Positions 32,054 through 51,811 are shown, counted from the stretch's first letter. The stretch is DNA of 64,000 nucleotides from an uncultured Acidobacteriota bacterium (GCA_963770895.1 CAVYRF010000001.1:1600001-1664000); one strand, 5' to 3'. Notes: generated by a model from the letters alone, not told the origin. Translations and numbers: made by a program.

Positions 32054-33877
32054 ATGAATCTGCTTCCCGCGCGCGAATTCCAGTGGCTGGTGCGTCAGGT
32101 CAGGCCCTTCGTCTGGGCGCACGTCGCCAGCCTGCTGTTCATCTTGCTATCGAGCCTGATGAATCTGCTCGACCCGCTGATCGTCAAGTGGTTGATCGAC
32201 GACGTCGTGCCCGGCAGGCGCTGGCGGCTGCTGCCGGTGGCGGCCGCCAGCTTCTTCGCCGCCTACGTGGCGCGCCTGGTCTGCCAGTGGCTGGGCCGCT
32301 ACGTCACCTTCGGCGCGGTGCAGAAGATGGTGTTCAAGATCCGCATCGAGGTGCTGCGCCACCTGCAGCGGTTGAGCGCCGAGTACCACGAGCGGACGCC
32401 GGTCGGAGAGACGCAGTTTCGCCTGCAGCAGGACGTCGATCAGGTGGGCGACCTGGGCGGCGACATTCTCCCCGGCTCCTTGACGATGATCTTGGTGACG
32501 CTGTCGGTCTTGGGCGCCATGGCCGTCCTCGACTGGCGCCTGGCGTGCATGATCCTGCCGCTCGTTCCCGTCTTTCTGGTGCAGCGCTCCCGCTTCGGCG
32601 CACGGCTGCGGGCGAGCGCCGACGCCGTGCAGCAGCGCTCGGGAAACCTGAACAGTTCCCTGCAGGAATCGCTGTCGGCCGTCGTCGAGATCCAGCTGCT
32701 GGGCCGCGAGAAGCGCCAGACGCGGCAGTTCGCCCGGCTCTCCGGGCAGCTGGTGCGCGCCCAGCTCAAGCGCCGGCTGGCCGAGCTGCGCTTCGCGCTC
32801 GGCTCGATGCTGGTCTTCGCCGCCGGCACCGCTCTGATCCTGGCGTTTGGCGGCTACCAGGTGATGCGGGGCAGCTTGACGGTCGGCGGCCTGGTGGCGT
32901 TCTATGGCTACCTCGGCCGGCTCTTCGAGCCGCTCAGCGGTGCGGTCGAAATGTACTCCCGCTTCCAGCGCGTCGGCGCCAGCATCCGCCGCCTGCTCGG
33001 CGTGCTCGACTACGAATCGCGGGTTCGCTCCGCGCCCGGCGCCGCGCCGCTGCCGGAGGCGGCTCCAGCCTGGATCGAGATGCGCGACGTGGCCTTCGCA
33101 TACGAGGCGGACCGCGACGTGCTGCGCGATCTCCACCTCAAGGTGGAAGCGGGCGAAAAGGTGGCGCTGGTGGGGGCCAGCGGCTCCGGCAAAAGCTCCG
33201 TCGCCAAGCTGGTGGCGCGCCTCTACGACCCCAGCCACGGCACGGTGTCGGTCAACGGCGCGGATCTGCGCGGCGTCGATCTCGGCAGCCTGCGCGCCCA
33301 GATCTCCTTCGTGCCGCAGGATTCGATCGTCTTCGCTGCCAGCCTGCGTGACAACCTGTTGTGGGGCAATCCGCGCGCCAGCCAGGCGGACCTGGATGCC
33401 GCGGCCGCGGTGGCCCAGCTCCGCGCTGTGATCGAAAAGCAGCCCGGCGGTTGGGACCAGCCGCTGGGCCCCTTCGGCGGCGGCCTGTCGCGCGGTGAGC
33501 GCCAGCGCCTGGCCCTGGCGCGGGCGCTGGTCCAGGATCGCCCGATCCTGATCCTCGACGAAGCGACCTCCGCCCTCGACGCCGCCACCGAAGACGCCAT
33601 CCTCCAGGCCCTGCACACCCGCTGCCGGGACAAGACGGTCCTCCTCATCACCCACCGCCCCGCCGGCGCGCGCTGGGCCGACCGCATCTTCGTCCTCGCC
33701 GCCGGCCGCCTGGTCGAAAAAGGCGCCTACGCCCAGCTCCACCAGGCCGGCACCGAGTACTACCGCCTATGCCAGGAAGGCCAGGTCGGTCACAAGAACC
33801 CGCCGACCGCCCCGACCGCAACCGTCAGGCCGACCGCCGCGGTGCGCCTGTCGCCCGCGGCCAGCAGGTCCGCGTAG
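32054..33877 (+). CDS. ABC exporter, fused TMD-NBD (probable exporter of the cluster product)
   Basis: Six-TM-type N-terminus, Walker A GASGSGKS, Q-loop VPQD, signature LSRGERQR, Walker B ILILDEATSALD, H-loop ITHR. Divergent from the PKS/NRPS operon. Confidence 0.92.
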   Translation: MNLLPAREFQWLVRQVRPFVWAHVASLLFILLSSLMNLLDPLIVKWLIDDVVPGRRWRLLPVAAASFFAAYVARLVCQWLGRYVTFGAVQKMVFKIRIEVLRHLQRLSAEYHERTPVGETQFRLQQDVDQVGDLGGDILPGSLTMILVTLSVLGAMAVLDWRLACMILPLVPVFLVQRSRFGARLRASADAVQQRSGNLNSSLQESLSAVVEIQLLGREKRQTRQFARLSGQLVRAQLKRRLAELRFALGSMLVFAAGTALILAFGGYQVMRGSLTVGGLVAFYGYLGRLFEPLSGAVEMYSRFQRVGASIRRLLGVLDYESRVRSAPGAAPLPEAAPAWIEMRDVAFAYEADRDVLRDLHLKVEAGEKVALVGASGSGKSSVAKLVARLYDPSHGTVSVNGADLRGVDLGSLRAQISFVPQDSIVFAASLRDNLLWGNPRASQADLDAAAAVAQLRAVIEKQPGGWDQPLGPFGGGLSRGERQRLALARALVQDRPILILDEATSALDAATEDAILQALHTRCRDKTVLLITHRPAGARWADRIFVLAAGRLVEKGAYAQLHQAGTEYYRLCQEGQVGHKNPPTAPTATVRPTAAVRLSPAASRSA

Positions 33878-33908: not shown

Positions 33909-33914
33909 ATCTCC

Positions 33915-33995
33915 AGTCCGAGGAGCGATGCAGGAGGCTGCCGCCTCCCAGGCTCGGACGCCGGCCATGACCGGAGCACAGGAACGGCGCTCACC
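33915..33995 (+). ncRNA. SAH riboswitch
   Basis: GTCCGAG/CTCGGAC P1 stem, GAGGAGCGnTGC, inner hairpin GGAGGC/GCCTCC, CAGGCTCGG and a downstream AACGGCGCTCA pseudoknot strand. Sits in the ahcY leader, the canonical context. Confidence 0.88.
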
Positions 33996-34066
33996 TCAAC
34001 CCTTTCCGGGGCCGATGGTGAGAGAGATCCCTCCCAGTTGCCCCGGGTTCCTCTGAGGAGGTCTTC

Positions 34067-35506
<1,440 letters not shown>

Positions 35507-35609: not shown

Positions 35610-37142
35610 TCAGCGGTTGCGGCTTGCGGCCGGCAGCTTGCCGTGGGCCGGCAGCCGGTAGAGCCCGTAGCTCGCGTTGCTGGCCATCAGCAGGTCGGGA
35701 CCCGGCAGCAGAGCGGCGGGCGGCGCGGGCGGGCGGCGCCAGGCGAGCTTGCCGACCAGCAGGCAGTCCTCGCGCGAGGCTGCGCCGGTTGCCGCACCGG
35801 CCGGCCCCGGCTCTTTGACTTCGAAGCCGTCCATCACCTCGAGGATGAAGCGCTCGCTGTAGGCCAGCTGAAAGGTCGAGCGGACCTCCCGGCAGCCGCC
35901 GGCGGCCGCCGGCTCCAGGGCGCTCAGGAAGCGCTGATCGCCCGGCATCCGGTCGCTGGTCAGCACGCGCGCCAGGAAGCGCGCCTCGCAGAGCGCCAGC
36001 GGCACCACCACCAGGCCGACCATCGTCGCGGCGCGCCAGCCGGTCGGAGCGCTGTCCGCCAGGAACAGAGCGCTGCCGGCACCGAGCACGGCGAGCGCCG
36101 GATAGATGGGGTCGAGGTACCAGTGGTGCTGCGTGCGGACGAACGAAACGATGAGCAGCGGCACCGCCACCCAGAGGACGAGCAGCGCCACCACCCGGCC
36201 GCGGCGCAGCCGCGCGCCCAGCTTGCCGCGCAGGCTCAGGACGGCGGCGGCGGCGATGACCAGCGGCCAGGGCGCGGCGCGGTCGAAGAGCGCCTCCACG
36301 TAGCTGAGCGGCGACGAGGTGCTCTTGTCGACGATCGTCGTCGAGCGATCGACCACGTCCTCGCGCACCATCCGCAGGAGAAAGTCCGCCGAGCCGTCGG
36401 CGTGCCAGCGCGCCCACACCCAGCCGCCGACGATCGCCGCGAAGAGCGCCGCGGCGGCCAGGCAGGGGAGCAGCCGCTGGCGCCTCCACGAGCCGCTCCA
36501 CACGATGTCGCCGCACGCGACCAGCGCGATCGGCAGGATCGCGAAGCTCTTGAGCAGGAAGCCGCAGGCCAGCAGCAGCGCGATCGGCACCACGCGCCAG
36601 GACGCCGTGCCCAGCTCCGGCAGCTGCACCGCCACCAGCGTCAGGATCAGCGTCAGACAGGCGTCGAAGTCGCCGCTGCGCGCCCCATGGTGACTGAGCC
36701 AGCCGTAGGACGTCGACACGATCAAGCCCGCCACGATCGCCACGCGCAGGCTGAACCATCGCCGCGCCCAGTACAAGGTCGTCCCCGTCACCGCCAGCGC
36801 GCACAGCGCCGAGGGCAGGCGCAGCGCCAGGGCCGAGCCGCCGAACAGAGCGAAGGACATGGCCATCAGCCAGTAGCCGAGCGGCGGCTTGAGGGCCCAC
36901 AGCTCTTTGTTCCCCGCATAGGTGGTGACGACATACGAGTGGTGCTGCTGCATCTCGTAGGCGGTCACGCCGTAGCGGGCCTCTTCGAAATCGTTGATCT
37001 TGGCGTTGCCCAGCGCCAGGAAGAGATTGCAGGCGGCAAGCGCCAACACCAGCCCGACGCACAGCCGAGGCCGCCGAGCCAGGAATGACGCGGTTGGCTC
37101 GATCGGCACGGCGCCCACGTCGCTGCTTGCCTCGCTGGTCAC
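35610..37142 (-). CDS. ArnT/PMT-like polytopic membrane glycosyltransferase (GT-C)
   Basis: DFEEARY after TM1, KPPLGYWL, ALRLPSAL, ARSGDFD and GFLLKS, with many TM helices. Confidence 0.82.
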   Translation of the reverse strand: MTSEASSDVGAVPIEPTASFLARRPRLCVGLVLALAACNLFLALGNAKINDFEEARYGVTAYEMQQHHSYVVTTYAGNKELWALKPPLGYWLMAMSFALFGGSALALRLPSALCALAVTGTTLYWARRWFSLRVAIVAGLIVSTSYGWLSHHGARSGDFDACLTLILTLVAVQLPELGTASWRVVPIALLLACGFLLKSFAILPIALVACGDIVWSGSWRRQRLLPCLAAAALFAAIVGGWVWARWHADGSADFLLRMVREDVVDRSTTIVDKSTSSPLSYVEALFDRAAPWPLVIAAAAVLSLRGKLGARLRRGRVVALLVLWVAVPLLIVSFVRTQHHWYLDPIYPALAVLGAGSALFLADSAPTGWRAATMVGLVVVPLALCEARFLARVLTSDRMPGDQRFLSALEPAAAGGCREVRSTFQLAYSERFILEVMDGFEVKEPGPAGAATGAASREDCLLVGKLAWRRPPAPPAALLPGPDLLMASNASYGLYRLPAHGKLPAASRNR

Positions 37143-37329
37143 GAGGTCGAGCGTACCGTCGCGCTACGGCAGTCCACCTGCACGTCGTCGACTCGGAGCA
37201 AGAGCTGCGCCAGCCCTGTGCGCGCGAGGCCGGTAGAGCCACCGTATGGCGCCCGGTCGTCGCCTCGCACGGACGACTCCGTCCTCGTTGGAGACCGCCG
37301 GTCGCAAGCGCCTGCCGGGCGAGCCGGGT

Positions 37330-40254
37330 TCAGGTGCGCGTCGAAGGCGGCGTCGCGCGCCGCCACGCGCGGCGATGGTGGGCGGCGGCCAGGAGGCCGA
37401 GAAGCAAGGCCGCGGCCAGCGCCGCGGTGAGCGCGAGCGGCCGGGCTTGCAGCGCGAGCCAGCCGCGCCCGCCGGGAAGCGGCACGAAGTCGCCGTCGCC
37501 GAGCACCACGACCCCGGACCAGGCGCCGGCGGGAGCGCCGGCCGCGATGCGGTCCCGCTGTGCCGCGGCGAGCGCCGCGCTCAGGCTGGCCCCCTCCGCG
37601 AGGTGGTGGTAGAAGCCGTCGAACAGCGCCGCGGCCTGGTCGTCCCACTGCGACCAGAGGGTGCCCAGCACGGCCTTGGCGCCGGCCTGAAAGAAAGCGC
37701 GCGCGAGGCTCAGCACTCCCTCTCCGTGCAGCAGCTTGCCGCGGGCGGTGGCGCAGGCCGACAGCACGACGACGGGGCTGTCGAGGCGCAGACCGACGAT
37801 GTCGTTCAGCCTCAGCAGGCCGTCCTGCTTCGATCTGTCGGCGCCGGGCGAAAGCCAGATGCCCGAGCTCGCCGGCTCCTGCTCGTCGATCCAGGTGTGG
37901 GTGGCGAAGTGCAGCAGGCCGAACGAGGCGAGCCGCGGGTGCGCCTGCAGCACGACGTCTTCCGAGACCGCCGCCCCCACCCGCTTCTCGCCGCCCAACC
38001 AGCGCGCCACGGAGTCGGCTTCCCGCGCCGCATAGGGGAGCGAGGCGAGCAGCGTCGCGGCGGCCTCGCCCAGGCTCTTCTGCGCCGTGTCGTCGGGCGC
38101 CGCTGGAGCGGCCAGGACCAGGGCTGGGCGATCGGCGGGCGCCGGGAGCTGGCCGCGCCAGCGGCGCCACAGGGTGGCGGAGGGAGCCTCGCTGAAGCGA
38201 TATCGCAAAGCGAGCGGCGCCTCGCCGGCCGACCGGCGCAGCGCCGCGAGCGGGACGCGGTACAGCTCGTCGTCGGGGATCACGATCAGGTGCTCGATCC
38301 ACGGCGGCAGATCGGCGAGCGCGCTTGCCAGGGTCCGGCGGTAGATCTCGGCGGCGGCCTCCGCCTCGCCGCGGTCGGTGGGGGCTGCCGCGGCGGCGTC
38401 TTGGCGGTCCGCCCGCCCGCGGTTGGTCGCCGCCGCCCCCTCGACCGGCGCCAGGAGCTCGACGAATCGGCGTACCGCCTGGCGCAGCGCGCCGCGGTCC
38501 GCATCCTTCAGGGCATAGGCGATGGGCGGCGCGTCGCGGGTCGCCACCAGCAGCCAGGAGCCGCCGCCGAAGTCGCCCCGCCAGTCCTTCCAGGGGGCGA
38601 TCTGAAACGCCAGCAGCGCCTCGTTTCTGGCGAGGCTGCTCCGCACCTGGCGCAAGGTCGCGAACTGCCCGGCGCCGCCCGGCGGCGGGGCGGCGGCGGG
38701 TGGGTTCGCGCGCTGGGCGGCGAGCTCGCGCCCGGCGCGCTCGATCGCGGCGGCGTCCTGGAGCGCGTTGGCACGTTCGCCTTCTGGGACGGCGGGGTCG
38801 TGGAGGCGCGCCTGGATCCGCTGCCGGCTCTCGTCGATCTGGTCGGCCCGGTGCTGCCAATGCTCCGCCGAGAGGGGTGTCGCCCCGGCGCGCTGAAGGG
38901 TGTCGAGCAGACTCCGGGCGCGCAGGCGCTCGGTCACCAGAAAGGCTTGCTCGAGCCAGCGGTCATCGTGGGTTTTCGACCATGCCGTGAAGAAGGTTCC
39001 GGCGAGCCAGGTATAGTCGTCGGACCACACCGAGAAAAGGCCGGCCTGGCTCGACCGGTTCTGAGCGCTGCGCAGATCTTCGATGGTGCCGAGCCCCTTG
39101 ACCAGCTCGTCGGCGCCCGCGATGGACGCACCGGCCGCCCAGGCGACGCGCATCGCCGTTCCCTCGACCGGGGCGCGAGCCCACGGGGTGTCGCCTGCCA
39201 GCCTGACGGCTTTCTTCACCGCGTCCTTCGCCTGGTCCGGCGCGCGCTCGGCGAGCTGCCGCGCCTGGGCATCGAGGCAAATCCCCTGGTGCGGCGCGTC
39301 GGCAGCATCGCTCCGGCAGCGGCCGACCTGATCGCGACCCTCGGCGTCGCGCAGCAAGCCCGCCAGGGCATAGTGCGCATCGACGGCATTGCCTGGATCG
39401 CCAGCTTGCTCGGTTGCCAGCGCAGCCCGCAGCATCAAAGCGACCGCGGCGGAGCGCTGGGTGTCGTCATCCGGCTGCTCCACCAATTTCTCGATCGCCA
39501 TCCGCGCCAGCCCGTAGAGGGCGCCGGCCGCGGCTCTGCGGTCGTTGGTGTCGAGCGCGATGTGCTGGCATTCGTCGTACTGCTGCGCAGCGCGGTCGAA
39601 GAGGCCGAGCTCGGCGCTGATGTTGCCCTGCATGTTCAACAGGGTCTCGTGGAGGTCACGCGCTTTCCAACTGGTATCCCCTGGCGCGATCCACGTCGCG
39701 GCCTGCTCCAGGTGGCGGGCCGCGGCGTCGAGGTTCAGGCCGGCAGCGAACAACTCTTTCGCCGTTTCGATCTCGTCGTCAGCGTACAGCAGCCGATCGC
39801 TTGCCGCGGCCGCAACGGCATGTGCACGGCCGCGTTCGAACTGCGCTTCATCGACATGACGCCAGTTCAGGACATAGACCAGGTCGTCGCGTGCCTGGAC
39901 CTCGCCGCTGGCGTCCCGGTCGGCCGCGAACAAGGCGGCGGTCTTGCGAAAGGCGGATTCCCAATGCCGGTTGGACTTCGGATCGGCCCACAGGAGCAGT
40001 CGCCAGAGGTCGAGGTAGGCCCAGTGACAGCCGGGGAAGCGAACGTGCAGGGTGGCTAGCCGCCTGCTGGCCGACCGCCAATCGCCGCTCTTGCCCTGGG
40101 CGTAGAGGTCTTCGGCCGCCTGCTGGCAGCCGGGCCGCGTCACAGCTTGTGGGTCGGAGGCACCATTTACAGGTGCGGAGGCCGCGGCGGGGACCGGAGC
40201 AGCGCGCCACAGGGAACAGGCAATCGCAAGGGCTGTCGCTGCCCGGCGGCGCAC
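37330..40254 (-). CDS. TPR-like + CHAT (caspase-like) protease with signal peptide and C-terminal TM anchor
   Basis: Catalytic motifs LLHFATH and VVLSACAT, plus ERLRARSLLD, LIVIPDDELY and WSGVVVLGD. The N-terminus is hydrophobic and there is a C-terminal hydrophobic helix followed by basic residues. Confidence 0.88.
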   Translation of the reverse strand: MRRRAATALAIACSLWRAAPVPAAASAPVNGASDPQAVTRPGCQQAAEDLYAQGKSGDWRSASRRLATLHVRFPGCHWAYLDLWRLLLWADPKSNRHWESAFRKTAALFAADRDASGEVQARDDLVYVLNWRHVDEAQFERGRAHAVAAAASDRLLYADDEIETAKELFAAGLNLDAAARHLEQAATWIAPGDTSWKARDLHETLLNMQGNISAELGLFDRAAQQYDECQHIALDTNDRRAAAGALYGLARMAIEKLVEQPDDDTQRSAAVALMLRAALATEQAGDPGNAVDAHYALAGLLRDAEGRDQVGRCRSDAADAPHQGICLDAQARQLAERAPDQAKDAVKKAVRLAGDTPWARAPVEGTAMRVAWAAGASIAGADELVKGLGTIEDLRSAQNRSSQAGLFSVWSDDYTWLAGTFFTAWSKTHDDRWLEQAFLVTERLRARSLLDTLQRAGATPLSAEHWQHRADQIDESRQRIQARLHDPAVPEGERANALQDAAAIERAGRELAAQRANPPAAAPPPGGAGQFATLRQVRSSLARNEALLAFQIAPWKDWRGDFGGGSWLLVATRDAPPIAYALKDADRGALRQAVRRFVELLAPVEGAAATNRGRADRQDAAAAAPTDRGEAEAAAEIYRRTLASALADLPPWIEHLIVIPDDELYRVPLAALRRSAGEAPLALRYRFSEAPSATLWRRWRGQLPAPADRPALVLAAPAAPDDTAQKSLGEAAATLLASLPYAAREADSVARWLGGEKRVGAAVSEDVVLQAHPRLASFGLLHFATHTWIDEQEPASSGIWLSPGADRSKQDGLLRLNDIVGLRLDSPVVVLSACATARGKLLHGEGVLSLARAFFQAGAKAVLGTLWSQWDDQAAALFDGFYHHLAEGASLSAALAAAQRDRIAAGAPAGAWSGVVVLGDGDFVPLPGGRGWLALQARPLALTAALAAALLLGLLAAAHHRRAWRRATPPSTRT

Positions 40255-40315
40255 GCTAAGATTCTACATCAAATGGGTTACAACCTTCCATGGAACCGGC
40301 GGTCGGAGCAAGCGA

Positions 40316-40352
40316 CGCCGGCGGAAACCCCCTGGGAGGGGGGCCGCCGGCG
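40316..40352 (-). terminator. GC hairpin downstream of the 42-aa small ORF
   Basis: CGCCGGCGG...CCCCCT GGG AGGGGGG...CCGCCGGCG. Confidence 0.4.
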
Positions 40353-40394
40353 CCGCCGCAGCCGATCCTGTTGCCTGCCGCCGGACTCGCGGTG

Positions 40395-40523
40395 TCACTC
40401 CTCCAGTTGGCCCCCCGGCGGGCCGGTTTCGACCGGCGGCGTCGCACATTGGATGCCGACCTCGCCGCTGACTGTCATCTGGTACGTGTCCTGATCGTTC
40501 GAGGAATCATCTGTATTTGCCAT
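40395..40523 (-). CDS. Small acidic protein, 42 aa (MANTDDSSNDQDTYQMTVSGEVGIQCATPPVETGPPGGQLEE)
   Basis: Strong RBS AAAGGAG 7 nt before the ATG. Co-oriented within the ECF/CHAT locus. Confidence 0.6.
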   Translation of the reverse strand: MANTDDSSNDQDTYQMTVSGEVGIQCATPPVETGPPGGQLEE

Positions 40524-40546
40524 GAAGGATCTCCTTTCTTTCTCGC

Positions 40547-40771
40547 TCAGGATTCCAGGCTCTGCTGGGGCGCAACGGTCTTGCACTCGGCCGCGGCCGG
40601 CGGGATCCGGCGCTTTGGGCGGGTGATCTTCACTCCGAAGTTCCAGAACAGGCTGAGGCTGAAGCCCCTTCTGCGTGCGGGGACTGGCTGCGCCCGGACC
40701 GCTCGCGCGGGAGGCTGGGGGGGATCGAGCTCGGCGATATCGACCCGGCTGAATCGGTCCTCGTGCGGCAT
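40547..40771 (-). CDS. Small basic Pro/Arg-rich protein, 74 aa (MPHEDRFSRVDIAELDPP...)
   Basis: RBS AAAAGGAG 8 nt before ATG 40771. Its stop lies just before the RBS of the next small ORF. Confidence 0.5.
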   Translation of the reverse strand: MPHEDRFSRVDIAELDPPQPPARAVRAQPVPARRRGFSLSLFWNFGVKITRPKRRIPPAAAECKTVAPQQSLES

Positions 40772-40953
40772 GGTCTCTCTCCTTTTCACGGTTCACCTCT
40801 CAGTGATGGTCTCCGCGGTGTCGGCCGGCGGCCGGCCTTGTCTCCGGCGGGCCACGCTCCCTCGATCTGTCCGCTTCCTACTAGACGAAGCGCAAGGCGC
40901 GATCCCCTCAGGCCCGCGCGTGACGGCGAGGCGCCCAGAGGACGGCAAGGGAT

Positions 40954-41682
40954 TCAGTGGACGGAAAACGTTTCGATTTGCGAGGTGGCGCTCAGGCGGC
41001 CGGGACCTGTCGCCGTCACCTGCCAGCTCAGCACCGATCCCGCGGGGAGTTTGGCGAGCGCAGTATCGGGCACCTGGTAGACCTTGACCGCCAGCTCTGT
41101 AGCTTGGGCCACGACGACGCCGGACCGCGTGCGCACGACGACGTCGTAGAGCACGCCGGGCGGGCCCTTCCAGGAAAGCAAGCAGCTGGAGCGGGAGGGG
41201 GCCTGGCAGCCGGTCTCCATCAGCAGCAGCGGACGGGGCGCCAGAGGCAGACGGGGCGCCGCGGCCGGCGCCAGCCCGCCGCGCAGGGCCGGCGCCGGCG
41301 CCGGAGCGCGCAGAACCTGGACGCCGATGAGGAGGGCGGCGGCCATGCCGGACGCCGCCACCCAGGCCGCCAGGGGGCGGCGGCGTCGCCGCTCCGGCTC
41401 GGGCGCCGCGGCCGTGTCGGCGCCCTGGTCCGCCTGTGGGTGCTCGAAGGCGACGGCGAGCCGCCATTCCTCCGTGCAGGCGGGGCAGGCCGCGAGATGA
41501 TCGATCACGTGGCGCAACGCATCGGCCGGCAGCTCGCCGTGCACCGCCAGCCAGATCGATTCTGGCGCCGGGCAGTCGGCGGGCACCGGCGGCTGGGATG
41601 GGCCGCCGGCAAACGCCCGGCGCAGCGACTCCAGATCGCCGCCGTCGCCCCTGCTGCCGCGGACGCCGCCGTCGCCGCTCAT
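40954..41682 (-). CDS. Zinc-finger (ZAS/zf-HC2) anti-sigma factor with TM helix and ectodomain
   Basis: CP...HLAACPAC (HxxxCxxC), a basic stop-transfer stretch, a TM helix, the PALRGG motif and a beta-rich C-terminus. ATGA overlap with the sigma gene. Confidence 0.85.
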   Translation of the reverse strand: MSGDGGVRGSRGDGGDLESLRRAFAGGPSQPPVPADCPAPESIWLAVHGELPADALRHVIDHLAACPACTEEWRLAVAFEHPQADQGADTAAAPEPERRRRRPLAAWVAASGMAAALLIGVQVLRAPAPAPALRGGLAPAAAPRLPLAPRPLLLMETGCQAPSRSSCLLSWKGPPGVLYDVVVRTRSGVVVAQATELAVKVYQVPDTALAKLPAGSVLSWQVTATGPGRLSATSQIETFSVH

Positions 41683-42221
41683 CGCGCCACCCCCGCCGCC
41701 TCGAGGCAGCGGCGCAGATCCGCCAGGCCGCGGTAGACCAGGTTCTCCGCCCGCTTGGGGCTCCAATTCAGGAGCTGGGCGGCCTCCGGCACGCTGTGTC
41801 CCACCAGGTGGAGCGTCACCGCCAGCCGCCGGGGCCGGACCAAACGGGCCAGGCAGGCGCGAATCGCCCGCCCCTGCTGCCGCGCCGACGTCGTCTGCTC
41901 GGGATTCGCGGCAGGTGTCGAGTGCTGCGTGTCGACCCCTTCGTCTTCCAAGGGGACCTCCCGCCTGCGCTTGAGCCGGCGGATCTCGTCGACCAGGGCG
42001 CTATAGGCCGCCTTGCGGAGGTACGCGGTGGAGAGGTCGGTGCTCCCGTCGCCGCGGCGGCAGACTTCGACGACGCGCAGCAACGCGACCTGCACGACGT
42101 CCTCGGCGCTCGCGGCGAGCCACGGCGGGCAGATGCTGGCGACGGCGCGCGTCAAGGCGGCGCGCAGGGCGACGAGATCCCCCTCCGCGATGGGGGAGGG
42201 GCCATGAGGCTGGCGCTCCAC
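41679..42221 (-). CDS. ECF RNA polymerase sigma factor
   Basis: Region 2 AEDVVQVALL...YLRKAAYSALVDEIRR and region 4 GHSVPEAAQLL...VYRGLADLR. The GTG start at 42221 is uncertain. Confidence 0.88.
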   Translation of the reverse strand: MERQPHGPSPIAEGDLVALRAALTRAVASICPPWLAASAEDVVQVALLRVVEVCRRGDGSTDLSTAYLRKAAYSALVDEIRRLKRRREVPLEDEGVDTQHSTPAANPEQTTSARQQGRAIRACLARLVRPRRLAVTLHLVGHSVPEAAQLLNWSPKRAENLVYRGLADLRRCLEAAGVAR

Positions 42222-42659
42222 GTGTGCCGGCTCGATCGTACGGTTCGTATAATTCGAGGATTCGCTGAAGTCTACCACGGCCACGGCGTGGGCGACCCGG
42301 ACGCGCCGCGAATTCGCCGCCAGGACCCTCACCCGGCGCGAACGCAGCCGCAGGTCGAGGCCGGGCCGCGGCCGGGGAGCGGCGGCACATTTCACCGCCT
42401 CGGATGGACCCTGCCGCAGGCTCGCGCCAGCCGCAGCCGGTCCTCCGCCATCTGGTTCCAGTGCGCCGTCGTACGCCATCGCATCGATCCTCCGCGCAGG
42501 AGCGCCCGCCCGGCAACGCGGCGGGCCTCATCCCGCCGCCGCCGGCAATCCGCCGTCGTCCTCACAACGAATGTCGATGGCCTTTCCCCTCAAGGCGCCG
42601 CGACGCAAGGCGCTGGCGACGCACCTGCTGTACGATGGCTCAGTTCCAAAGGAGAATGG

Positions 42660-44419: not shown

Positions 44420-47400
44420 ATGGACAAGAGCGAGCCCGATCCGGGGTCCTTGCCCACGGCTGAGCGGCCTACCGAGGCCGCCACCGAGGCGATGCCGTTG
44501 GGTGCATGGGCGGCGCGCCCGCCGGGCACCCCCGCGGCGGCGGCGCCTGACGGTGAGACGGCGACCGCGCCGGCGGTCGGCGACGTCCCGGCCGGCGGGC
44601 AAGATGGCGAAGCCGCGGCGGCGCGAGCCATCGCGGCGGGCGGGCGCTACCGGATCGAAGGGCTGCTGGGGCGAGGCGGCATGGGGTTCGTGTTCCGCGC
44701 CCACGACGGCCGGCTGGGCCGCACGGTGGCGATCAAGGCGCTGGCCGCCTCGGGCGCGGCGGCGGCGGCGCGGTTGGAGCGCGAGGCGCAGCTGCAGGCG
44801 CGGGTCGATCACCCCAACGTCGCCAAGGTGTACGAAACCGGCGAAGCGCAGGGGATGCGCTTCATCGTCATGCAGTTCATCCCCGGCAAGCCGCTCAGCG
44901 CGCTCGCCGAATCGCTGTCGCTCGACGAAAAGGTGCGCCTGGTGCAGCGCGTTGCGGAGGGTGTCCACGAGGCGCACCGCCTGGGTCTGGTGCATAGCGA
45001 CCTCAAGCCGAAAAACGTCCTGGTCGTCGCCGTCGAGCAGGGCGGCTGGCACCCCTACGTGCTCGATTTCGGCATCGCGCGCGAGGTGGCGGCGGCCGGG
45101 ACCGCCGGCGAAGGCGCCACGATCACCGGCACGCCGGCCTACATGGCGCCCGAGCAGGCGCGCGGCGAGCCGCTCGACCGCCGCACCGACGTCTACGCCC
45201 TGGGGGTCATGCTGTTCCGCCTGCTGTCGGGGCGCCTTCCCTACAGGGAGCAGAGCACGCGCGAGACGCTGGAGCGGGTGCTGCACGAACCGGCGCCGCC
45301 GCTGCGCCACGTGGCGCCGGACCTGGAGGCGATCGTCCGGAAGTGCCTGGCCAAGGCTCCTGCCGAGCGCTACGCGACGGCGCGCGGCCTGGCCGACGAC
45401 CTGGTGCGCTGGCTGGACGGCGAACCGGTCCTGGCGCGGCCCCAGACCCGCCTCTACCGGCTGGCGACGCGGGTGCGCAAGAACCGCGTGCTGGTCGCGG
45501 TGTCGCTCGCGGCGCTCGCCGGCGTGCTGGCGGCCTCCGGCTGGGCGGTGGCCGAAAGGCTGCAGACGGCGCGCCGCGCCGAGCTGGCGCAGCGCTTCGG
45601 CCGCGAGGAAGAGCGCTACGAATGGACGCTGCGCGCCGCCTACGAGCTGCCGCTGCACGACACCAGCGGCGAGCGCAACGCGGTCGGCGCGGCGATCGCG
45701 CGGCTGGATCGCGAGGTCCGCGGGCTGAGCCCGGCCCTGCGCGCCCCCGGCGACGCGGCGCTCGGCCGCGGCCTGCTGGCGCTGGGCGACGACGCGCAGG
45801 CGCGGCGCCACCTGGAAGCCGCCTGGCGGGCGGGCAATCGCGCGCCGGAGCTGGCCTACGCGCTGGGCCTGACCCTGGTGCACTCCTACCAGGAGGCGCT
45901 GGCGCGCGCCCGCCTGGCGCGCGACGAAAGCGAACGGCAGCTGGCGCTGGCCTCGGCCCGGCGGCGGCTGCGCGACCCGGCGCTCGCCTATCTGCAGGCG
46001 AGCCGCGGCGGCGACCTGGTGGCCAGCCAATACCTCGAAGCGCTGCTGGCCTACCTGGCGGGCGACTCGGCGACGACGCTGGTCAAGAGCCGCGCGGCGA
46101 TCGCGCGTCTTCCCTGGCTCTACGAGGCGCTGGCACTGCAAGCCCAGGCCTGGCGCGCGCGCACCGAGCGGGCTCCCGACGAGGCGGGGCGCGCGGCGGC
46201 GCTGGCGCAAGCCGAGGCGGCCCTGACCCAGGCGGTGCGGCTGGGCGCCAGCGACGCCTCCCTCTACCTGGGGCTGTGCGAAACCGAAATCGAGCAGCTG
46301 CAGGAAGCCGTCTACGGCACGGGGGTCGGCGTCGCGCCGCTCTGCGATCGCGCCGTCGCCGCCTGCGACGCGGCGCTGCGCGCCGAACCGCGCTTCAGCC
46401 CGGCGCTCGCCGCCAAGGCGGAGGCGCTCACCCTGACGGCGGGATTCGCGCTCGAACACGGCGCCGACCCCGAGCCGCGGCTGCGCCAGGCCGCAGCGGC
46501 GGCCGCCACCGCCATCCGCCAGGCCGGCGGCGACGCCCAGCCGCACCGCGCGCTGGCCGCGGTGTGGAACCTGCGCGCCCGCGCGCTGCGGCACCAGGGC
46601 GGCGACGTGCGCCAGGCCCTGCGGCCGGCGATCGCCAGCCTGGAGCAGGCGCTGCGCTGCGAGCCCGACGACTGGCTGAGCCTGGCCGACCTGGGCAACG
46701 CCCTCGGTCAGCGCGCCATTCAGGAGGGGGAGCACGGCGAGGACGCGGCGGCATCGTTCGCGGCGTCGGTCGCGGCGCTGGAGCGCTCGGCGGCGATCGA
46801 GCCCAACCTGTACACGACGCGCTTCAACCTGGGCCGCACCTACGCCGATTGGGGAGAGTTCCGGGCCGGTCACGGCCAGGACCCCACCGCGGTCCAGGAC
46901 CAGGCCGTCGCCGCCTACCGCCGCGCGATCGCCATGAGGCCCAGCTTCGCGCAGGCCTACAACAGCCTGGGCGCGGTGCTCTTCTTCCGCGCCAGCCAGC
47001 CACGCCCGGGCATCCAGCCGATGGCGCTGCTCGAAGATGCCCGCGTCGCGCTCGCCAGGTCGATCGCCATCCAGCCGACCTACGCCAACCCGCACTTCAA
47101 CCTGGGGCTGGTCTTCCGCGAGATGGGCAACCTGGAGGACGCCGCCGGCAGCGACCCCTGGCCGCACCTGCGCCAGGCCATCGAGGCCTTCGGCGACGGC
47201 CTGCGCCTCAACCCGAAGATCTTTTTCGCCTACATCGAGCTGGGACGCATCTACGTCATCGGCGGCCGTCACGACGTCAGGCTGCACCGCTCGCCGCTCG
47301 ATTCGACCGCCGCCGCCGTGCGCCTGGCCGAGCGCAGCCTCGCCATGCAGCCCGACGATTTCATGGCGCTCAAGATGCGCGCCGAGGCCCACATGACGGA

Positions 47401-47836
47401 AGCCGATTGGGCCCTCGAGCAGAAGCGTTCGCCCAACCCGCTGCTGGCCCTGGCGCAGGCCGACATCGAAAGGGCCGCCCAGGTCAACGCCAACGACTTC
47501 GGGGCCTACGAGCTGCTGGGCGACGTGCACCGCGCCGCCGCGCGCGCCCGCCTGGACGCCGGCCAGCCCGCCGCACCCGAGATCGACCAGGGCCTGGCCG
47601 CCATCGCCAAGGGCCGCCTGATCGCCGGCGAGGACCAGCCCGGCCTGCTCGCCGTCGCCGGCGGCCTGTACCTGGCCCGCGCCGAAGCAGCCCGCGCCGC
47701 CGACGCCCGCGCCGCGGCGGCGCGCATGGCCGTCGCCAGCTTCGAGCGCTCCGCCCGCCTGCGCCCGCCGAGCGCCACCCAGCTCGCGCCCGAGCTGGCT
47801 CGCGCCCGCCAGCTGGCGGCGTCCCCCGGCTCCTGA
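44420..47836 (+). CDS. Hanks-type Ser/Thr kinase with TM helix and TPR-rich C-terminus
   Basis: LGRGGMG, VAIK, HSDLKPKN, DFG, GTPAYMAPEQ and DVYALG, then a TM helix and TPR-like repeats (AYNSLG, FNLG). Confidence 0.92.
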   Translation: MDKSEPDPGSLPTAERPTEAATEAMPLGAWAARPPGTPAAAAPDGETATAPAVGDVPAGGQDGEAAAARAIAAGGRYRIEGLLGRGGMGFVFRAHDGRLGRTVAIKALAASGAAAAARLEREAQLQARVDHPNVAKVYETGEAQGMRFIVMQFIPGKPLSALAESLSLDEKVRLVQRVAEGVHEAHRLGLVHSDLKPKNVLVVAVEQGGWHPYVLDFGIAREVAAAGTAGEGATITGTPAYMAPEQARGEPLDRRTDVYALGVMLFRLLSGRLPYREQSTRETLERVLHEPAPPLRHVAPDLEAIVRKCLAKAPAERYATARGLADDLVRWLDGEPVLARPQTRLYRLATRVRKNRVLVAVSLAALAGVLAASGWAVAERLQTARRAELAQRFGREEERYEWTLRAAYELPLHDTSGERNAVGAAIARLDREVRGLSPALRAPGDAALGRGLLALGDDAQARRHLEAAWRAGNRAPELAYALGLTLVHSYQEALARARLARDESERQLALASARRRLRDPALAYLQASRGGDLVASQYLEALLAYLAGDSATTLVKSRAAIARLPWLYEALALQAQAWRARTERAPDEAGRAAALAQAEAALTQAVRLGASDASLYLGLCETEIEQLQEAVYGTGVGVAPLCDRAVAACDAALRAEPRFSPALAAKAEALTLTAGFALEHGADPEPRLRQAAAAAATAIRQAGGDAQPHRALAAVWNLRARALRHQGGDVRQALRPAIASLEQALRCEPDDWLSLADLGNALGQRAIQEGEHGEDAAASFAASVAALERSAAIEPNLYTTRFNLGRTYADWGEFRAGHGQDPTAVQDQAVAAYRRAIAMRPSFAQAYNSLGAVLFFRASQPRPGIQPMALLEDARVALARSIAIQPTYANPHFNLGLVFREMGNLEDAAGSDPWPHLRQAIEAFGDGLRLNPKIFFAYIELGRIYVIGGRHDVRLHRSPLDSTAAAVRLAERSLAMQPDDFMALKMRAEAHMTEADWALEQKRSPNPLLALAQADIERAAQVNANDFGAYELLGDVHRAAARARLDAGQPAAPEIDQGLAAIAKGRLIAGEDQPGLLAVAGGLYLARAEAARAADARAAAARMAVASFERSARLRPPSATQLAPELARARQLAASPGS

Positions 47837-47908: not shown

Positions 47909-47970
47909 TATGTTTGTTTAAATGAGCATTGCTTGCTTAGCGGCGATGGATCGTAGAAAAGGAGAATGCC

Positions 47971-50103
47971 ATGAAGCGCTTCCTGGTGGTGGTTTCGATT
48001 GTCGCGATCGGCCTGATTGCCGCGTGGCGGAGCCGGGCGTCGGAAACGAGCGTGCCGGCCACGGTGGCGGTGCACGGCGGGCCGGAGCTGTCGGTCACCG
48101 GGCCGGTGCTCTTCCAGCCGGCGCCGGATACCCAGATCTACGTCGCCGATTTCGCCGTCACCCTCAAGGGGGAATCGACGACGCAGACCACCACCACCGA
48201 CCTGGCAGGGCGGTACCGGTTCCATGACGTCGCGCCGGGCCGCTACTCCGTCTGCTGGGAGCAGCCTGGGTGGGTGAGCGGCTGTACCCCCGAAGTGGCG
48301 GTGACGCCGGGCAATTCCGCCTATCCGCACGCGGTGCGGCTCAAGCCGGAGGCAGCCGACAGCGTCGCCTGGGGCGACGTCAGCCTGGCGGACGGCGGCA
48401 GCGCCGTCGTGGTGGACCGCGGCTTCGCGATCGAGCAGACGCCGGCGGTGCAGGTGCTCGACGCGGCGGGCAGGATCATCGGGACGGGGCGTGCCAACTC
48501 CTCGGGCAGGTATGCCATCGGCCTCCAGGGCGCCGCCGCCGCGGTTCGCGCGGTCGCCGGCGCGGCGGACCAGCAGGTGAAGCTGGAGCACGGTGCGGCG
48601 AGCCTCGCCACCCACATCCAGTTGAACAATCACCGGCCGGTCATCGCCAGCGTCGAAGTGCTCCAGGGCGCCGTCGCCGCGACGGCGGTCCATCCGGGCG
48701 ACACGCTGACGCTGCGCCCGTTCGCCACCGACGCCGATGGCGATCGCCTGACCTATCGCTGGACCGCCAGCGCCGGCACGATCGCCGGCGCCGACGACGG
48801 CACGGCAACCTGGCAGCTGCCGGCGTTCCCGGCGCGGCTGGGCGCCACCCTGCTGGTCACCGACGGCAAGGGCGGCGCCGACCGCCGCACCGTCTCCATG
48901 AGCGTCGGCGGAGCGCGGGCCAACGTCCGGTTGGAGGCGGTGGGCGCACCGCCGACGTGCAACCCGCTGTCGCTGGCCGGGGTGCCGCCGCCGTCCGGCT
49001 ACTCGCCGGGGCCGCCCGTCACGCCACCCGACTTCCTGACCTTTCTGCTGACCAGCGACAACTCCGCCCAGTACTACCAGAACGTCGATCCCAACTCGCT
49101 CCGCGGCACCCTGGGCGACTGGTGGCAGGCGGCCGGGTTCAATCCCACGGATGGCTCCGGCGGCGTCGCCCATGCCGCCTACCTCAACTGGAACGATCTC
49201 GGGTTCGGCCGCGACATGCACTTCAACACCGTCGGCAACAACGTGTACGCCTGGGTGACCAACTACGGCTGCCCCGACGACGATCCCAACAACGCCAATC
49301 TCGCTGCCTCGCCAAATCCCGCGGATGCGGTCGCCACCGTGTGCATGGAGTATTCGCCGGTGGAAGGCACGACGCAGCCGATCGTGAAATTCTTCGTCTA
49401 CGTCGGCGGGGTCGCGGCGGGCGCGCGCACCGGCCAGGCCAATCTCGACGAGTGGGGCGGCAAGCCGGTGCCCAACCTCTGCCAGACCTGCCACGGCGGC
49501 ACCGACGCCTATCGGGGAGGCGCCAACGTCAACCTGGCGGCCAACTTCCTGCCGTTCGACCTGGCCCTGTTGCAGTATCCCGGCCCGTCCAAAACGCCGC
49601 CGGCGGCGGACCTTCCGGCCTACTACCAGATGAATTCCATCATCGCCAAGCTGACCAGCCCGCGGCCGGCGATCGCTGCCCTGATCAACGGCTGGTACAC
49701 GCCGCTGACCAGTCCGCCGACGCAAAACAACAACTACCTGCCGACGGGGTGGCAGCCAGGCTCCGGCGCGCCGCCAAGCGCCGCCGGCCTCTACCAGACG
49801 GTGATCACTCCCGGCTGCCGGACTTGCCACTACTCGTTCTCGGACGACATCAACTGGGATACCTATTCCTCAGTCCTGGCAGACAATTCGACCATCCAAG
49901 CCTACGTCTGTGACACCCAGCCGGTCATGCCGCAGGCCGCCGTCACCTACATCAACTTCTGGACCAACGCCTACGGCTTCCCCACGTCGCCGCCGACGTT
50001 CCTGGGCCAGTACACCGATCCCAACTGGCCCGCCTTCGGCTCCTGCACGGCGACCGTCGCCAGTCCCGCGCCGGGCGGCGGCTCCTCCAGCGGCAGCCGG
50101 TAA
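47971..50103 (+). CDS. Secreted protein with beta-sandwich/Ig-like domains and two c-type heme motifs
   Basis: AAAGGAG RBS and signal peptide. TTTDLAGRYRF (carboxypeptidase-regulatory-like) and DADGDRLTYRW...VTDGKGG (Ig/PKD-like). Heme motifs CQTCH and CRTCH. Confidence 0.8.
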   Translation: MKRFLVVVSIVAIGLIAAWRSRASETSVPATVAVHGGPELSVTGPVLFQPAPDTQIYVADFAVTLKGESTTQTTTTDLAGRYRFHDVAPGRYSVCWEQPGWVSGCTPEVAVTPGNSAYPHAVRLKPEAADSVAWGDVSLADGGSAVVVDRGFAIEQTPAVQVLDAAGRIIGTGRANSSGRYAIGLQGAAAAVRAVAGAADQQVKLEHGAASLATHIQLNNHRPVIASVEVLQGAVAATAVHPGDTLTLRPFATDADGDRLTYRWTASAGTIAGADDGTATWQLPAFPARLGATLLVTDGKGGADRRTVSMSVGGARANVRLEAVGAPPTCNPLSLAGVPPPSGYSPGPPVTPPDFLTFLLTSDNSAQYYQNVDPNSLRGTLGDWWQAAGFNPTDGSGGVAHAAYLNWNDLGFGRDMHFNTVGNNVYAWVTNYGCPDDDPNNANLAASPNPADAVATVCMEYSPVEGTTQPIVKFFVYVGGVAAGARTGQANLDEWGGKPVPNLCQTCHGGTDAYRGGANVNLAANFLPFDLALLQYPGPSKTPPAADLPAYYQMNSIIAKLTSPRPAIAALINGWYTPLTSPPTQNNNYLPTGWQPGSGAPPSAAGLYQTVITPGCRTCHYSFSDDINWDTYSSVLADNSTIQAYVCDTQPVMPQAAVTYINFWTNAYGFPTSPPTFLGQYTDPNWPAFGSCTATVASPAPGGGSSSGSR

Positions 50104-50147: not shown

Positions 50148-50299
50148 GAGCCCCCTCCGCCGCTGCGCCTCCTCAAGGGCGCGGCCCGGCCGCCGCCCTC
50201 GATCTTCGGCGCCGACTCCGCGTGATAGCTTTGGCGCGCGATTCGTGCGGTAGTCAAAGACGGCAGTGAACCGGCACCGGTGTGTCAGGGGGGCGATCG

Positions 50300-51811
50300 A
50301 TGCGGATGCTACGGACAGGGCCTTTTGTGGTTCTGGGTGTGGCGGCGGCGCTGGCCGCGTTTGGCGGCGGCGCCCGGCACGCGGCGCGGGCGGTTTCGGC
50401 CAGCGCGGCGGCCGCGGGCGCCACCGCTCCGACTGCGGCATCGGCTGCCCCGGCGACCACGGCAGCGGCGCCGCGCACGATGCGGGTGGACTACTACCAT
50501 TCGGGCAGCGCGCACGCGGAGCGATTCAGCCTGGACCGCGTGGTGCTCGAACCGCTCCCCTGGCCGGGCAATCCGGCGCGGCCGATCGACGACACCAACC
50601 TGGGCCCGTACCTCTTCCAGGTGATCGACCGCGCCAGCAACCGCGTGCTGTATTCGCGCGGCTTCGCTTCCATCTTTGGCGAGTGGCAGGAGACCGACGA
50701 GGCCGGCCGCGGCGAGCGGACGTTCTCCGAATCGGCCCGCTTCCCGGCGCCGTCGCACCCGGTGCGGCTGGTGATCGAAAAGCGCGACGAGCAGAACGAT
50801 TTCCACGAGATCTGGGCGACGACGATCGATCCCGCCGACCCGTTCGTCGATTCGTCGGCGCCGCCTTCGCCGGGACCGCTGCTGGCGCTGCAGAAGAGCG
50901 GCGACCCGGCGGTGAAGGTCGACTTTCTCATTCTGGGCGACGGTTACACCCAGGCGGAGCTGCCCAAGTTCGAGCGCGATGCGCGGCGGCTGATGGAGAT
51001 CCTGTTCGCGGCGCCGCCGTTCAAGCAGCACCGGAGCGACTTCAACGTGTGGGCGCTCTGCCCGCCGGCGGTCCAATCGGGCATCTCGCGGCCTTCGACC
51101 GGTGTCCATCGCCGCTCGCCCGTCGGCGCCAGCTACGACACGTTCGGTTCGGAGCGCTACGTCCTCACCTACGAAAACCGTACGTTCCGCGACATCGCGT
51201 CGTATGCCCCCTACGAATTTGTCGAGATCCTGGTCAACGGCCAGACCTACGGCGGCGGCGGGATCTTCAACCTGTACAGCACCGTCGCCGCGGACAGCCT
51301 GTGGTCGCCGTACATCTTCGTGCACGAGTTCGGCCACCACTTTGCCGGGCTTGCCGACGAGTACTACACCTCCGACGTGCCGACCGACGCCACCAGGCTG
51401 GTCGAGCCCTGGGAGCCCAACGTCACGATCGATCCCCAGGCGGCCAAGTGGGCGGCCCTGCTGTCTCCGGGCGTGCCGCTGCCGACGCCCTGGAAGAAGG
51501 CGGAGTTCGAGTCCTATTCGCACGCCATCCAGGATCGCCGCCACGACATCCGCCGCCGGCAGCGCCCGGAATCGGAGATGGACGCCCTGTTCACCGAAGA
51601 GCGCGCGCACGAAACCGTGCTGCTCGGCACCGACAGCTATTCCGGCAAGGTCGGCGCCTTCGAGGGCGCCGACTATCGCGCCCACGCCTATTACCGGCCG
51701 CAGACCGACTGCATCATGTTCACCCGCGACGAGGGCGGCTTCTGCGCCGTCTGCCGCCGGGCGATCGAACGGGTGATCGCGCTCTACACCGCGGCGCTGG
51801 GCGGCTCATGA
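50300..51811 (+). CDS. Peptidase family M64 (IgA peptidase-like) metalloprotease
   Basis: RTMRVDYYHSG N-domain, ILGDGYT, YGGGG, HEFGHHFAGLADEY and C-terminal CIM...FCAVC. Has a signal peptide. Confidence 0.9.
   Translation: MRMLRTGPFVVLGVAAALAAFGGGARHAARAVSASAAAAGATAPTAASAAPATTAAAPRTMRVDYYHSGSAHAERFSLDRVVLEPLPWPGNPARPIDDTNLGPYLFQVIDRASNRVLYSRGFASIFGEWQETDEAGRGERTFSESARFPAPSHPVRLVIEKRDEQNDFHEIWATTIDPADPFVDSSAPPSPGPLLALQKSGDPAVKVDFLILGDGYTQAELPKFERDARRLMEILFAAPPFKQHRSDFNVWALCPPAVQSGISRPSTGVHRRSPVGASYDTFGSERYVLTYENRTFRDIASYAPYEFVEILVNGQTYGGGGIFNLYSTVAADSLWSPYIFVHEFGHHFAGLADEYYTSDVPTDATRLVEPWEPNVTIDPQAAKWAALLSPGVPLPTPWKKAEFESYSHAIQDRRHDIRRRQRPESEMDALFTEERAHETVLLGTDSYSGKVGAFEGADYRAHAYYRPQTDCIMFTRDEGGFCAVCRRAIERVIALYTAALGGS

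Follow-up and report, generated by a model that had tools for sequence, protein, structure and literature searches.

Within a 64,000-nucleotide stretch of DNA from an uncultured Acidobacteriota bacterium (GCA_963770895.1 CAVYRF010000001.1:1600001-1664000, referred to here as the window) lies a locus that encodes a sigma factor of the extracytoplasmic function (ECF) type, a membrane-spanning anti-sigma factor, two small peptides and a protease with tetratricopeptide repeats (TPR) and a CHAT domain. The locus is a real gene module that is conserved in Acidobacteria and comprises the sigma factor, its membrane inhibitor, a caspase-like protease whose sequence pattern points to export, and small peptides; it looks like a split form of the DdvS/DdvA type of extracytoplasmic signalling system, to which a conserved peptide component has been added. 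We propose, with a probability of roughly 0.4, that the CHAT protease of this split module cuts the anti-sigma factor after a juxtamembrane arginine, Arg134, as the site-1 step of signalling.

This reading is favoured because the equivalent parts are fused in DdvA, because the CHAT protease and the anti-sigma ectodomain appear to share one side of the membrane, and because the catalytic dyad of the protease and the juxtamembrane arginine of the anti-sigma factor are both invariant. DdvA of Myxococcus xanthus is described as an anti-sigma factor in which a zinc-binding anti-sigma (ZAS) domain, a transmembrane (TM) segment and a periplasmic TPR-CHAT region form one polypeptide (PMC11506125), and since both parts are united there, the two separate proteins of the window would be expected to act in one pathway on the sensing side. 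The authors of that work propose a signal-induced cut of the juxtamembrane linker by CHAT as the site-1 step before RseP (PMC11506125), therefore the idea of CHAT as a site-1 protease is not a new one.

As the G+C content of the window is 65-78%, genes were picked by third-position GC (GC3), and six minus-strand genes, all with high GC3, were found between 42221 and 35610; the gene set, coordinates and domain calls that an earlier note on this DNA had given for them are right by GC3, Pfam and NCBIfam. A genome scan with the anti-sigma alignment gave 57 related loci, 55 of which carry the label of an Acidobacteriota lineage (Acidobacteriota, Thermoanaerobaculia, Thermoanaerobaculaceae, Thermoanaerobaculum, Holophagales or Holophagae); the remaining two are an unclassified "uncultured bacterium" metagenome-assembled genome and a contig labelled Burkholderiales. 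Named genome records with the anti-sigma family are Acidobacteriota, mostly Thermoanaerobaculia. In tblastn searches with the window proteins a sigma homologue (44-65% identity) was found next to the anti-sigma gene in 56 of the 57 loci and a CHAT homologue in 37 of the 57. Downstream sequence of 3.5 kb or more is present for 40 loci, and 31 of these have CHAT, which is downstream and co-oriented in 30 and upstream in one; partial CHAT genes are present in six shorter loci. The neighbourhood survey for CHAT, zf-HC2 and ECF genes that had been proposed earlier thus bears the association out, and with sigma adjacent in 56/57 loci and CHAT present in 31/40 the arrangement is beyond chance. When all open reading frames (ORFs) with coding-like GC3 were clustered, only those for the anti-sigma factor (55 loci), the sigma factor (51) and CHAT (31) recurred widely. 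Furthermore the anti-sigma proteins of these loci are only 30-42% identical to that of the window, so the linkage spans deep divergence.

It is very improbable that these neighbours are functionally unrelated, with CHAT genes simply common in these genomes and the gene order an inherited synteny of one lineage. Such a view could draw on the restriction of all loci to one phylum, bar the contig labelled Burkholderiales, and on the loss of CHAT adjacency in several branches; however, the flanks outside the module are not conserved whilst sigma, anti-sigma and CHAT are, the linkage persists at 30-42% anti-sigma identity, a shared promoter-like motif described below ties the units together and the DdvA fusion provides a precedent. 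The sixth gene, which encodes a PMT_2/ArnT-like glycosyltransferase (35610-37142, minus strand; PMT_2 E 6e-9) and had been noted as the gene that follows CHAT, has no tblastn match in any of the 57 loci and is therefore regarded as a neighbour that lies outside the module.

The sigma factor gene (41679-42221, minus strand) encodes 180 aa counted from a GTG. The protein matches Pfam Sigma70_r4_2 (30.8 bits against a cutoff of 25.7, E 2.3e-7) and NCBIfam TIGR02937 (sigma70-ECF; 53.1 bits against 42.9), with Sigma70_r2 slightly under threshold (20.5 bits against 24, E 4.3e-4), and on these domains it is predicted to be an ECF (group IV) sigma-70 factor; its sole match in a phmmer search of PDB sequences is CnrH (E 0.004). 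The ORF stays open for 86 further codons, to an ATG at 42479 (42222-42479, minus strand), whilst the stretch 42230-42300 is low in GC and non-coding in appearance, so the true start of the gene and its 5' untranslated region are uncertain. The stop codon of the sigma gene and the ATG of the anti-sigma gene overlap as ATGA in the window, and with this overlap and the adjacency the pair has the co-transcribed arrangement of an ECF sigma factor and its cognate anti-sigma factor, the binding of the two proteins being predicted.

The anti-sigma factor (40954-41682, minus strand; 242 aa) matches Pfam zf-HC2 (22.7 bits against a cutoff of 22.2) and carries the zinc-type residues C37/H62/C66/C69, of which H62 and C66 are each retained in 147 and C69 in 148 of 151 diverse representatives, and C37 in at least 90% of the rows of a 21-row alignment. 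It has the H-x3-C-x2-C motif of class I ZAS proteins in an N-terminal helical domain, from which zinc binding and sequestration of the sigma factor can be predicted. An AlphaFold2 model built on the 21-row alignment (mean pLDDT 76.6) shows a helical domain with helices at 14-80, a TM helix at 105-125 (41308-41370), a low-confidence linker at 126-156 and a confident beta-sandwich at 157-240 (40963-41214), for which FN3 domains are the best fold matches (E about 2e-4). The LRGG sequence that had been pointed out just outside the TM helix (41275-41286, minus strand) is indeed located in this linker as residues 133-136, with Arg134 at 41281-41283, nine residues past the TM helix. The arginine is kept in 21/21 relatives, in 56/56 proteins from the window and 55 complete locus ORFs, and in 149 of the 151 diverse representatives, a level of conservation shared with the zinc ligands and with the ectodomain's core tryptophans. 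Its distance past the TM helix is 8-15 residues in most homologues; the window protein has an additional Pro/Ala-rich insertion of ~20 residues. Its conservation and position make Arg134 a candidate cleavage site. The preceding residue is hydrophobic or aromatic (Y in 73, F in 28 and L in 14 of the 151).

A word-indexed protein search found 20 relatives of this anti-sigma factor, the closest of which (P0005, 80% identical, and P0006, 60%) come from metagenome sources only. In a profile search of cluster representatives (50% identity) there were 6185 matches at E <=1e-3 and 924 at E <=1e-30, and the best 150 are all 210-274 aa in length. All source names displayed for the relatives are "hypothetical protein", except one "anti-sigma factor RsiW", and phmmer against PDB sequences gave chance-level matches only (best E 0.19).

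The anti-sigma and CHAT genes are separate, with 700 nt between them. The TPR-CHAT protein (37330-40254, minus strand; 974 aa) matches Pfam CHAT over residues 633-920 (E 6.3e-53). Its model, from a 29-row alignment (pLDDT 82.3, pTM 0.79), shows a hydrophobic helix at the N-terminus (3-16), then a TPR solenoid (41-516) and the CHAT domain (545-920), and lastly a C-terminal helix (929-966) that begins ~8 residues past the catalytic domain and is followed by basic residues. The catalytic residues had been described as intact and prove to be invariant: His786 (37897-37899) and Cys834 (37753-37755) are present in all 32 proteins compared (window plus 31 loci), the gene of L006 having been left out of this count because it is interrupted. 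With a catalytic His followed by Cys the protein has the arrangement of CHAT, clan CD peptidases, and it is predicted to be an active peptidase. Across the 31 CHAT homologues a signal-peptide-like N-terminus and a C-terminal TM helix with a basic cluster are kept, a pattern that suggests export by a Sec signal peptide and anchoring in an N-out, C-in orientation. Together with the model, this conservation supports the signal peptide, the C-terminal anchor and the placement of both CHAT and the anti-sigma ectodomain on one side of the membrane, as had been claimed. A GDGDxVPLPGG motif is conserved before the C-terminal TM helix and, because this motif, the TM helix and an Arg/Lys cluster end nearly every homologue, the catalytic domain would be held within ~8 residues of the membrane. 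The NCBIfam models of C-terminal sorting signals (such as PEP-CTERM and GlyGly-CTERM) did not match the CHAT tail.

Residues 925-932 of CHAT (37459-37482, minus strand) read PLPGGR(G/K) in most homologues, which places an arginine near the protein's own TM helix, and it could be speculated that a CHAT protease that cuts after Arg might also free itself from the membrane. Some loci have a second TPR-CHAT paralogue beside the first (L027 at 9087-11921, L040 at 9208-12051, L018 upstream of 2998).

The closest precedent for the protease was found to be DdvA. A fold search with the CHAT model has DdvA (8rw5, E 7e-13) as its top match, with Csx29 (E about 2e-12) and separases close behind, and when the CHAT family profile is compared with solved structures the best match is again DdvA (8rot_B, E 2e-8), over the catalytic core, compared to an E of 0.017 for Csx29; phmmer found no match to CHAT among PDB sequences. 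The window module and DdvS/DdvA have in common an ECF sigma factor, an N-terminal zinc anti-sigma domain of C-H-C-C type, one TM helix, a TPR-CHAT of separase/craspase type that has a His-Cys dyad and is periplasmic in DdvA and apparently so here given its signal-peptide-like N-terminus, and the same proposed logic of CHAT as the site-1 step before RseP. They differ in that the anti-sigma factor and TPR-CHAT are two proteins here, the latter with its own C-terminal anchor helix, that the anti-sigma ectodomain has an FN3-like domain which is absent from DdvA, and that sequence similarity is confined to the catalytic core. The outputs also differ, as small peptides look like the local output here whereas the DdvS/DdvA-type system is described as controlling a defence island of CRISPR and cyclic oligonucleotide-based antiphage signalling (CBASS) genes via GTAA-n16-CGT promoters, the DdvS promoter (PMC6061681), a sequence unlike the GAGGGGAW-N12-TTCGT motif of the present loci. 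When the six locus proteins were searched with PADLOC there was no match other than a weak one to BovA. Pfam scans found no cas or CBASS domains in 21 of the 22 large GC3-supported ORFs of the window and in a Ppx/GppA ORF, the remaining large ORF being one that overlaps a nonribosomal peptide synthetase (NRPS) gene; CRISPR arrays were not searched for.

The precedent that had been put forward earlier was Csx29 of type III-E CRISPR, which cleaves the sigma inhibitor Csx30 (PMC10028731). The TPR-CHAT fold is common to craspase (Cas7-11-Csx29) and the window protein, and in that system a cleaved sigma inhibitor starts a transcriptional response, as is proposed here; however, Csx29 is cytoplasmic, RNA-activated and bound to Cas7-11, and no cas genes were seen here. 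The window protein scores 14 bits against a cutoff of 300 with the NCBIfam Csx29 model (NF041237) and is not a member of that family, and DdvS/DdvA is both the closer and the earlier precedent. Canonical regulated intramembrane proteolysis of anti-sigma factors is known from RseA, with DegS and RseP, and from MucA, with AlgW. These systems and the present one share a single-pass anti-sigma factor in which a juxtamembrane or periplasmic cut is expected to license the site-2 protease, but here the locus itself encodes the site-1 candidate, which belongs to the clan CD cysteine proteases and not to the DegS-type serine proteases. CHAT genes, along with subtilase and carboxypeptidase genes, have been described in the context of ECF54 sigma factors, for which proteolytic control has been proposed (PMC8999054); a CHAT gene near an ECF sigma gene is thus common to both, but ECF54 sigma factors are described there as having no anti-sigma factor (PMC8999054) and one is present here. 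In the literature searched, no paper was found on a separately encoded, exported CHAT protein that works with an anti-sigma factor, and the main text of the Casas-Pastor ECF classification, the part of that work considered, has no mention of "CHAT".

The membrane topology also allows a different role for the protease, as a co-sensor or guard whose TPR domain would bind the FN3 domain, as RseB guards RseA, and shield the linker until a cue, or self-cleavage of CHAT off its anchor, unshields it and another protease cuts. That both proteins are membrane-tethered on the periplasmic side is in line with this, as are the strong conservation of the juxtamembrane GDGDxVPLPGG(R/K) of CHAT and the description of the bulky TPR-CHAT of DdvA as blocking RseP until it is removed (PMC11506125). 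We regard it as unlikely, since the dyad, invariant in 32/32, argues that proteolysis matters and no evidence of binding was obtained; complex prediction with CHAT 41-924 and anti-sigma 127-242, each with its own alignment, returned a score of 0.00 in two runs, which speaks neither for nor against binding.

In related loci the gap between the anti-sigma and CHAT genes contains a conserved non-coding block with the core GAGGGGAW-N12-TTCGT. Exactly two matches to this motif, both on the minus strand, occur in the window when up to one mismatch is allowed, against 0.03 expected. Copy 1 (GAGGGGAA-N12-TTCGT, 42567-42591) is upstream of the sigma gene, at a distance of 346 nt if the gene starts with the GTG at 42221 or of 88 nt if it starts with the alternative ATG at 42479, and copy 2 (GAGGGGAT-N12-TTCGT, 40885-40909) is upstream of both small ORFs. 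The motif sits between the anti-sigma and CHAT genes in 29 of the 37 CHAT-bearing loci, compared to none of the nine CHAT-less loci with long flanks and two of nine short loci. Where a gap separates the sigma gene from the anti-sigma gene, a related motif is found 5' of the latter, above the score threshold in 17/54; at the threshold applied, the position-weight scan missed both sites of the window, its matrix having been trained on another clade. In its form, a G-rich -35-like block with CGTT ~17 nt on, the motif resembles ECF promoters, and this resemblance and its position suggest that it may be a promoter that depends on this sigma factor. The possibility that the conserved block acts as an RNA was set aside, since its invariant parts are separated by a variable spacer and show no conserved pairing, which is more in keeping with a promoter; in Rfam searches the gap (40150-41050) gave nothing and the whole window only an S-adenosylhomocysteine (SAH) riboswitch elsewhere.

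In eleven loci (L013, L045, L048, L020, L043, L038, L034, L016, L023, L047 and L032) a second block, GACTTACATGGGAACC..GAGAAAC-N16-CGTA, is found ~60 nt 5' of the GAGGGGAT motif and resembles an ECF-type promoter (GAAAC-N16-CGTA); the window shows no evident copy of it. An opposite-strand copy of the motif is present between the sigma and anti-sigma genes in L050, L013, L020, L023, L032, L033, L043, L045 and L055, and could mark a further member of the regulon or an antisense transcript; in L050 the minus-strand motif near 7748 precedes a small ORF for a hydrophobic protein of 40 aa (7590-7712, minus strand). A further motif copy is found just 5' of the distal CHAT gene in L010, L027 and L040, followed in L027 by a small ORF.

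The CHAT gene appears to be expressed separately. In each of the 15 sequences folded, the peptide genes are followed by a strong GC hairpin, which usually has a T-rich tail; that of the window (40315-40354, minus strand, between sORF2 and CHAT; -33 kcal/mol) may be a terminator or an attenuator, though the gap yielded no call in a strict terminator scan. Furthermore a TAnnnT hexamer ends 6-8 nt 5' of the chosen CHAT start in 22 of 32 CHAT genes, the example in the window being a -10-like TAGAAT (40261-40266, minus strand) 6 nt 5' of the CHAT GTG, and this placement suggests a leaderless CHAT transcript from its own promoter. With its own -10-like element and a hairpin between it and the peptide genes, CHAT fits an input component that is present before induction.

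The two small ORFs behind copy 2, for which the earlier note offered no explanation, both have AGGAG-type ribosome-binding sites. sORF1 (40547-40771, minus strand; 74 aa) encodes a basic protein with the core RRRGFSLSLFWNFGVKITRP and no TM segment; it has relatives in L006 and L007 (E about 1e-5), and differences from that in L006 fall 7/1/12 by codon position, concentrated at the third. sORF2 (40395-40523, minus strand; 42 aa) encodes an acidic peptide ending ..IQCATPPVETGPPGG.. that is a marginal member (E 9.5e-4 with a profile of 21 peptides) of a Cys-Cys/Pro-rich peptide family, and in L001-L003 an sORF1-like segment is fused to a C-terminus like that of the Cys-Cys peptides. Directly 3' of the motif there are 24 peptide ORFs in 22 loci, with strong ribosome-binding sites, encoding 38-53 aa apart from two fused proteins of 105 and 109 aa (L001 and L002) and one called at 64 aa (L023). 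Each peptide is hydrophilic at the N-terminus and carries a C-C-x-x-P-P-x-x-D-P-G-P motif at the C-terminus; the genes are present as two or three tandem copies in some loci, and in four loci there are variants that lack the Cys pair. The profile finds 54 proteins, all the named ones being "hypothetical" and from Thermoanaerobaculia, whilst the ESM Atlas gave no usable match for sORF1 or sORF2. Signal peptides and TM segments are absent from all of these small proteins. A role as precursors of ribosomally synthesised and post-translationally modified peptides was set aside, since no modifying enzyme is conserved nearby; so was leader-peptide attenuation, as the hairpin of L013 starts ~26 nt past the peptide stop, out of the ribosome's reach, and the two or three tandem copies in some loci also disfavour it. 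The peptides look like the local output of the sigma factor, with CHAT as an independently expressed input.

Cleavage after Arg134 could be accommodated in the following scheme. At rest the zinc-type anti-sigma factor would hold the ECF sigma factor at the inner membrane, with a short linker and an FN3-like domain as its periplasmic part, and the separately encoded TPR-CHAT protease would be exported and tethered to the same membrane. On a periplasmic cue CHAT would cut the anti-sigma linker after Arg134 and the leftover stub would become a substrate for a site-2 protease, freeing the sigma factor, which would then transcribe its own operon or the anti-sigma gene, plus the small peptide genes, from GAGGGGAW-N12-TTCGT promoters; CHAT itself would be transcribed from a separate promoter of leaderless type.

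Several observations weigh against this scheme. No CHAT gene is found within 8 kb in nine of the 40 well-flanked loci (L005, L008, L014, L024, L025, L028, L030, L031 and L046), in which the anti-sigma factor and its arginine are retained, and CHAT-less loci interleave with CHAT-bearing sisters on the anti-sigma tree, a tree of 46 rows from which a motif filter dropped ten, among them four CHAT-less loci. At the site itself, the conservation of RG that the earlier note proposed to survey holds for the arginine and fails for the glycine: the position after the arginine varies (G in 42, E in 28, A in 28 and D in 19 of the 151), so the proposed "R|GG" shrinks to a hydrophobic-Arg motif. In most homologues the arginine lies ~5 residues ahead of the first strand of the ectodomain, and may be kept for structural reasons. 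No fused anti-sigma-CHAT relative was seen among the best 150 representatives or in a search for longer relatives, the latter being weak evidence, and at the score chosen the motif was found upstream of the sigma gene in 0/54 related loci. With regard to the precedents, the site-1 role of DdvA has by its authors' account not yet been validated, and other CHAT proteases are described as cutting after R, M or L, the craspase sites being after M or L (PMC11506125).

Some of the same evidence could be explained if CHAT were not the site-1 protease, the main rival reading though a somewhat less likely one, in which the FN3-bearing anti-sigma factor senses the cue and is cut by a general periplasmic protease, and in which CHAT is part of the response, serving the peptides (by processing them, binding them or being inhibited by them) or acting on other envelope proteins, whilst the arginine would have a structural or some other role. 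The peptide genes lie directly 5' of CHAT in at least 22 loci, behind the ECF-type motif, and in the nine CHAT-less loci the anti-sigma factor with its arginine persists although CHAT is not adjacent. TPR domains often bind short peptides. Separase, a structural relative, is controlled by the disordered pseudosubstrate securin (PMC11506125). The peptides, however, have no signal peptide or TM segment and CHAT is apparently periplasmic, so that the two would not meet without an exporter; the DdvA fusion ties TPR-CHAT to the anti-sigma factor itself; and the hairpin and the -10-like element uncouple CHAT from the peptide transcript. It is also conceivable, if decidedly unlikely, that both roles combine in an autocrine loop, in which the Cys-Cys/Pro-rich peptides, encoded by one to three tandem genes, would be the output of the sigma factor and would be exported and bound or processed by a TPR-CHAT that also cuts the anti-sigma factor at the invariant arginine.

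Elsewhere in the window, the SAH riboswitch (33914-33999, plus strand; Rfam RF01057, matched at 55.8 bits, the gathering score being 37) is directly 5' of an S-adenosylhomocysteine hydrolase gene (34067-35506), an ordinary and known arrangement. A large NRPS/polyketide synthase cluster (1770-31792, minus strand) has ORFs of 1873, 2400, 3769 and about 1300 aa, in which condensation, AMP-binding, PP-binding, KS-AT-ACP-TE and TauD domains are found, and TauD is also encoded by a gene of its own; no link between the cluster and the sigma module was seen in the related loci. An ATP-binding cassette exporter gene (32054-33877, plus strand) is also present. Genes for a Ser/Thr kinase with TPR repeats (44420-47836), a CarboxypepD_reg/Big-domain protein (47941-50103) and a peptidase M64 (50282-51808), all on the plus strand, are not conserved with the module.

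Finally, the proposal that CHAT acts at site 1 remains unproven for DdvA because its signal has yet to be identified and because it would have to cut itself. In the module described here the protease and its proposed substrate are separate proteins with one near-invariant candidate P1 arginine, therefore the idea of CHAT cleavage at Arg134 becomes directly testable. With 924 clusters at 50% identity (E <=1e-30) the anti-sigma family is both large and uncharacterised, and the peptide family and the promoter-like motif provide both a ready reporter and an unexplained output. Should the autocrine loop prove to be true, diderm bacteria would have a transmembrane circuit that is based on peptides and gated by a protease, for which no counterpart has been described.

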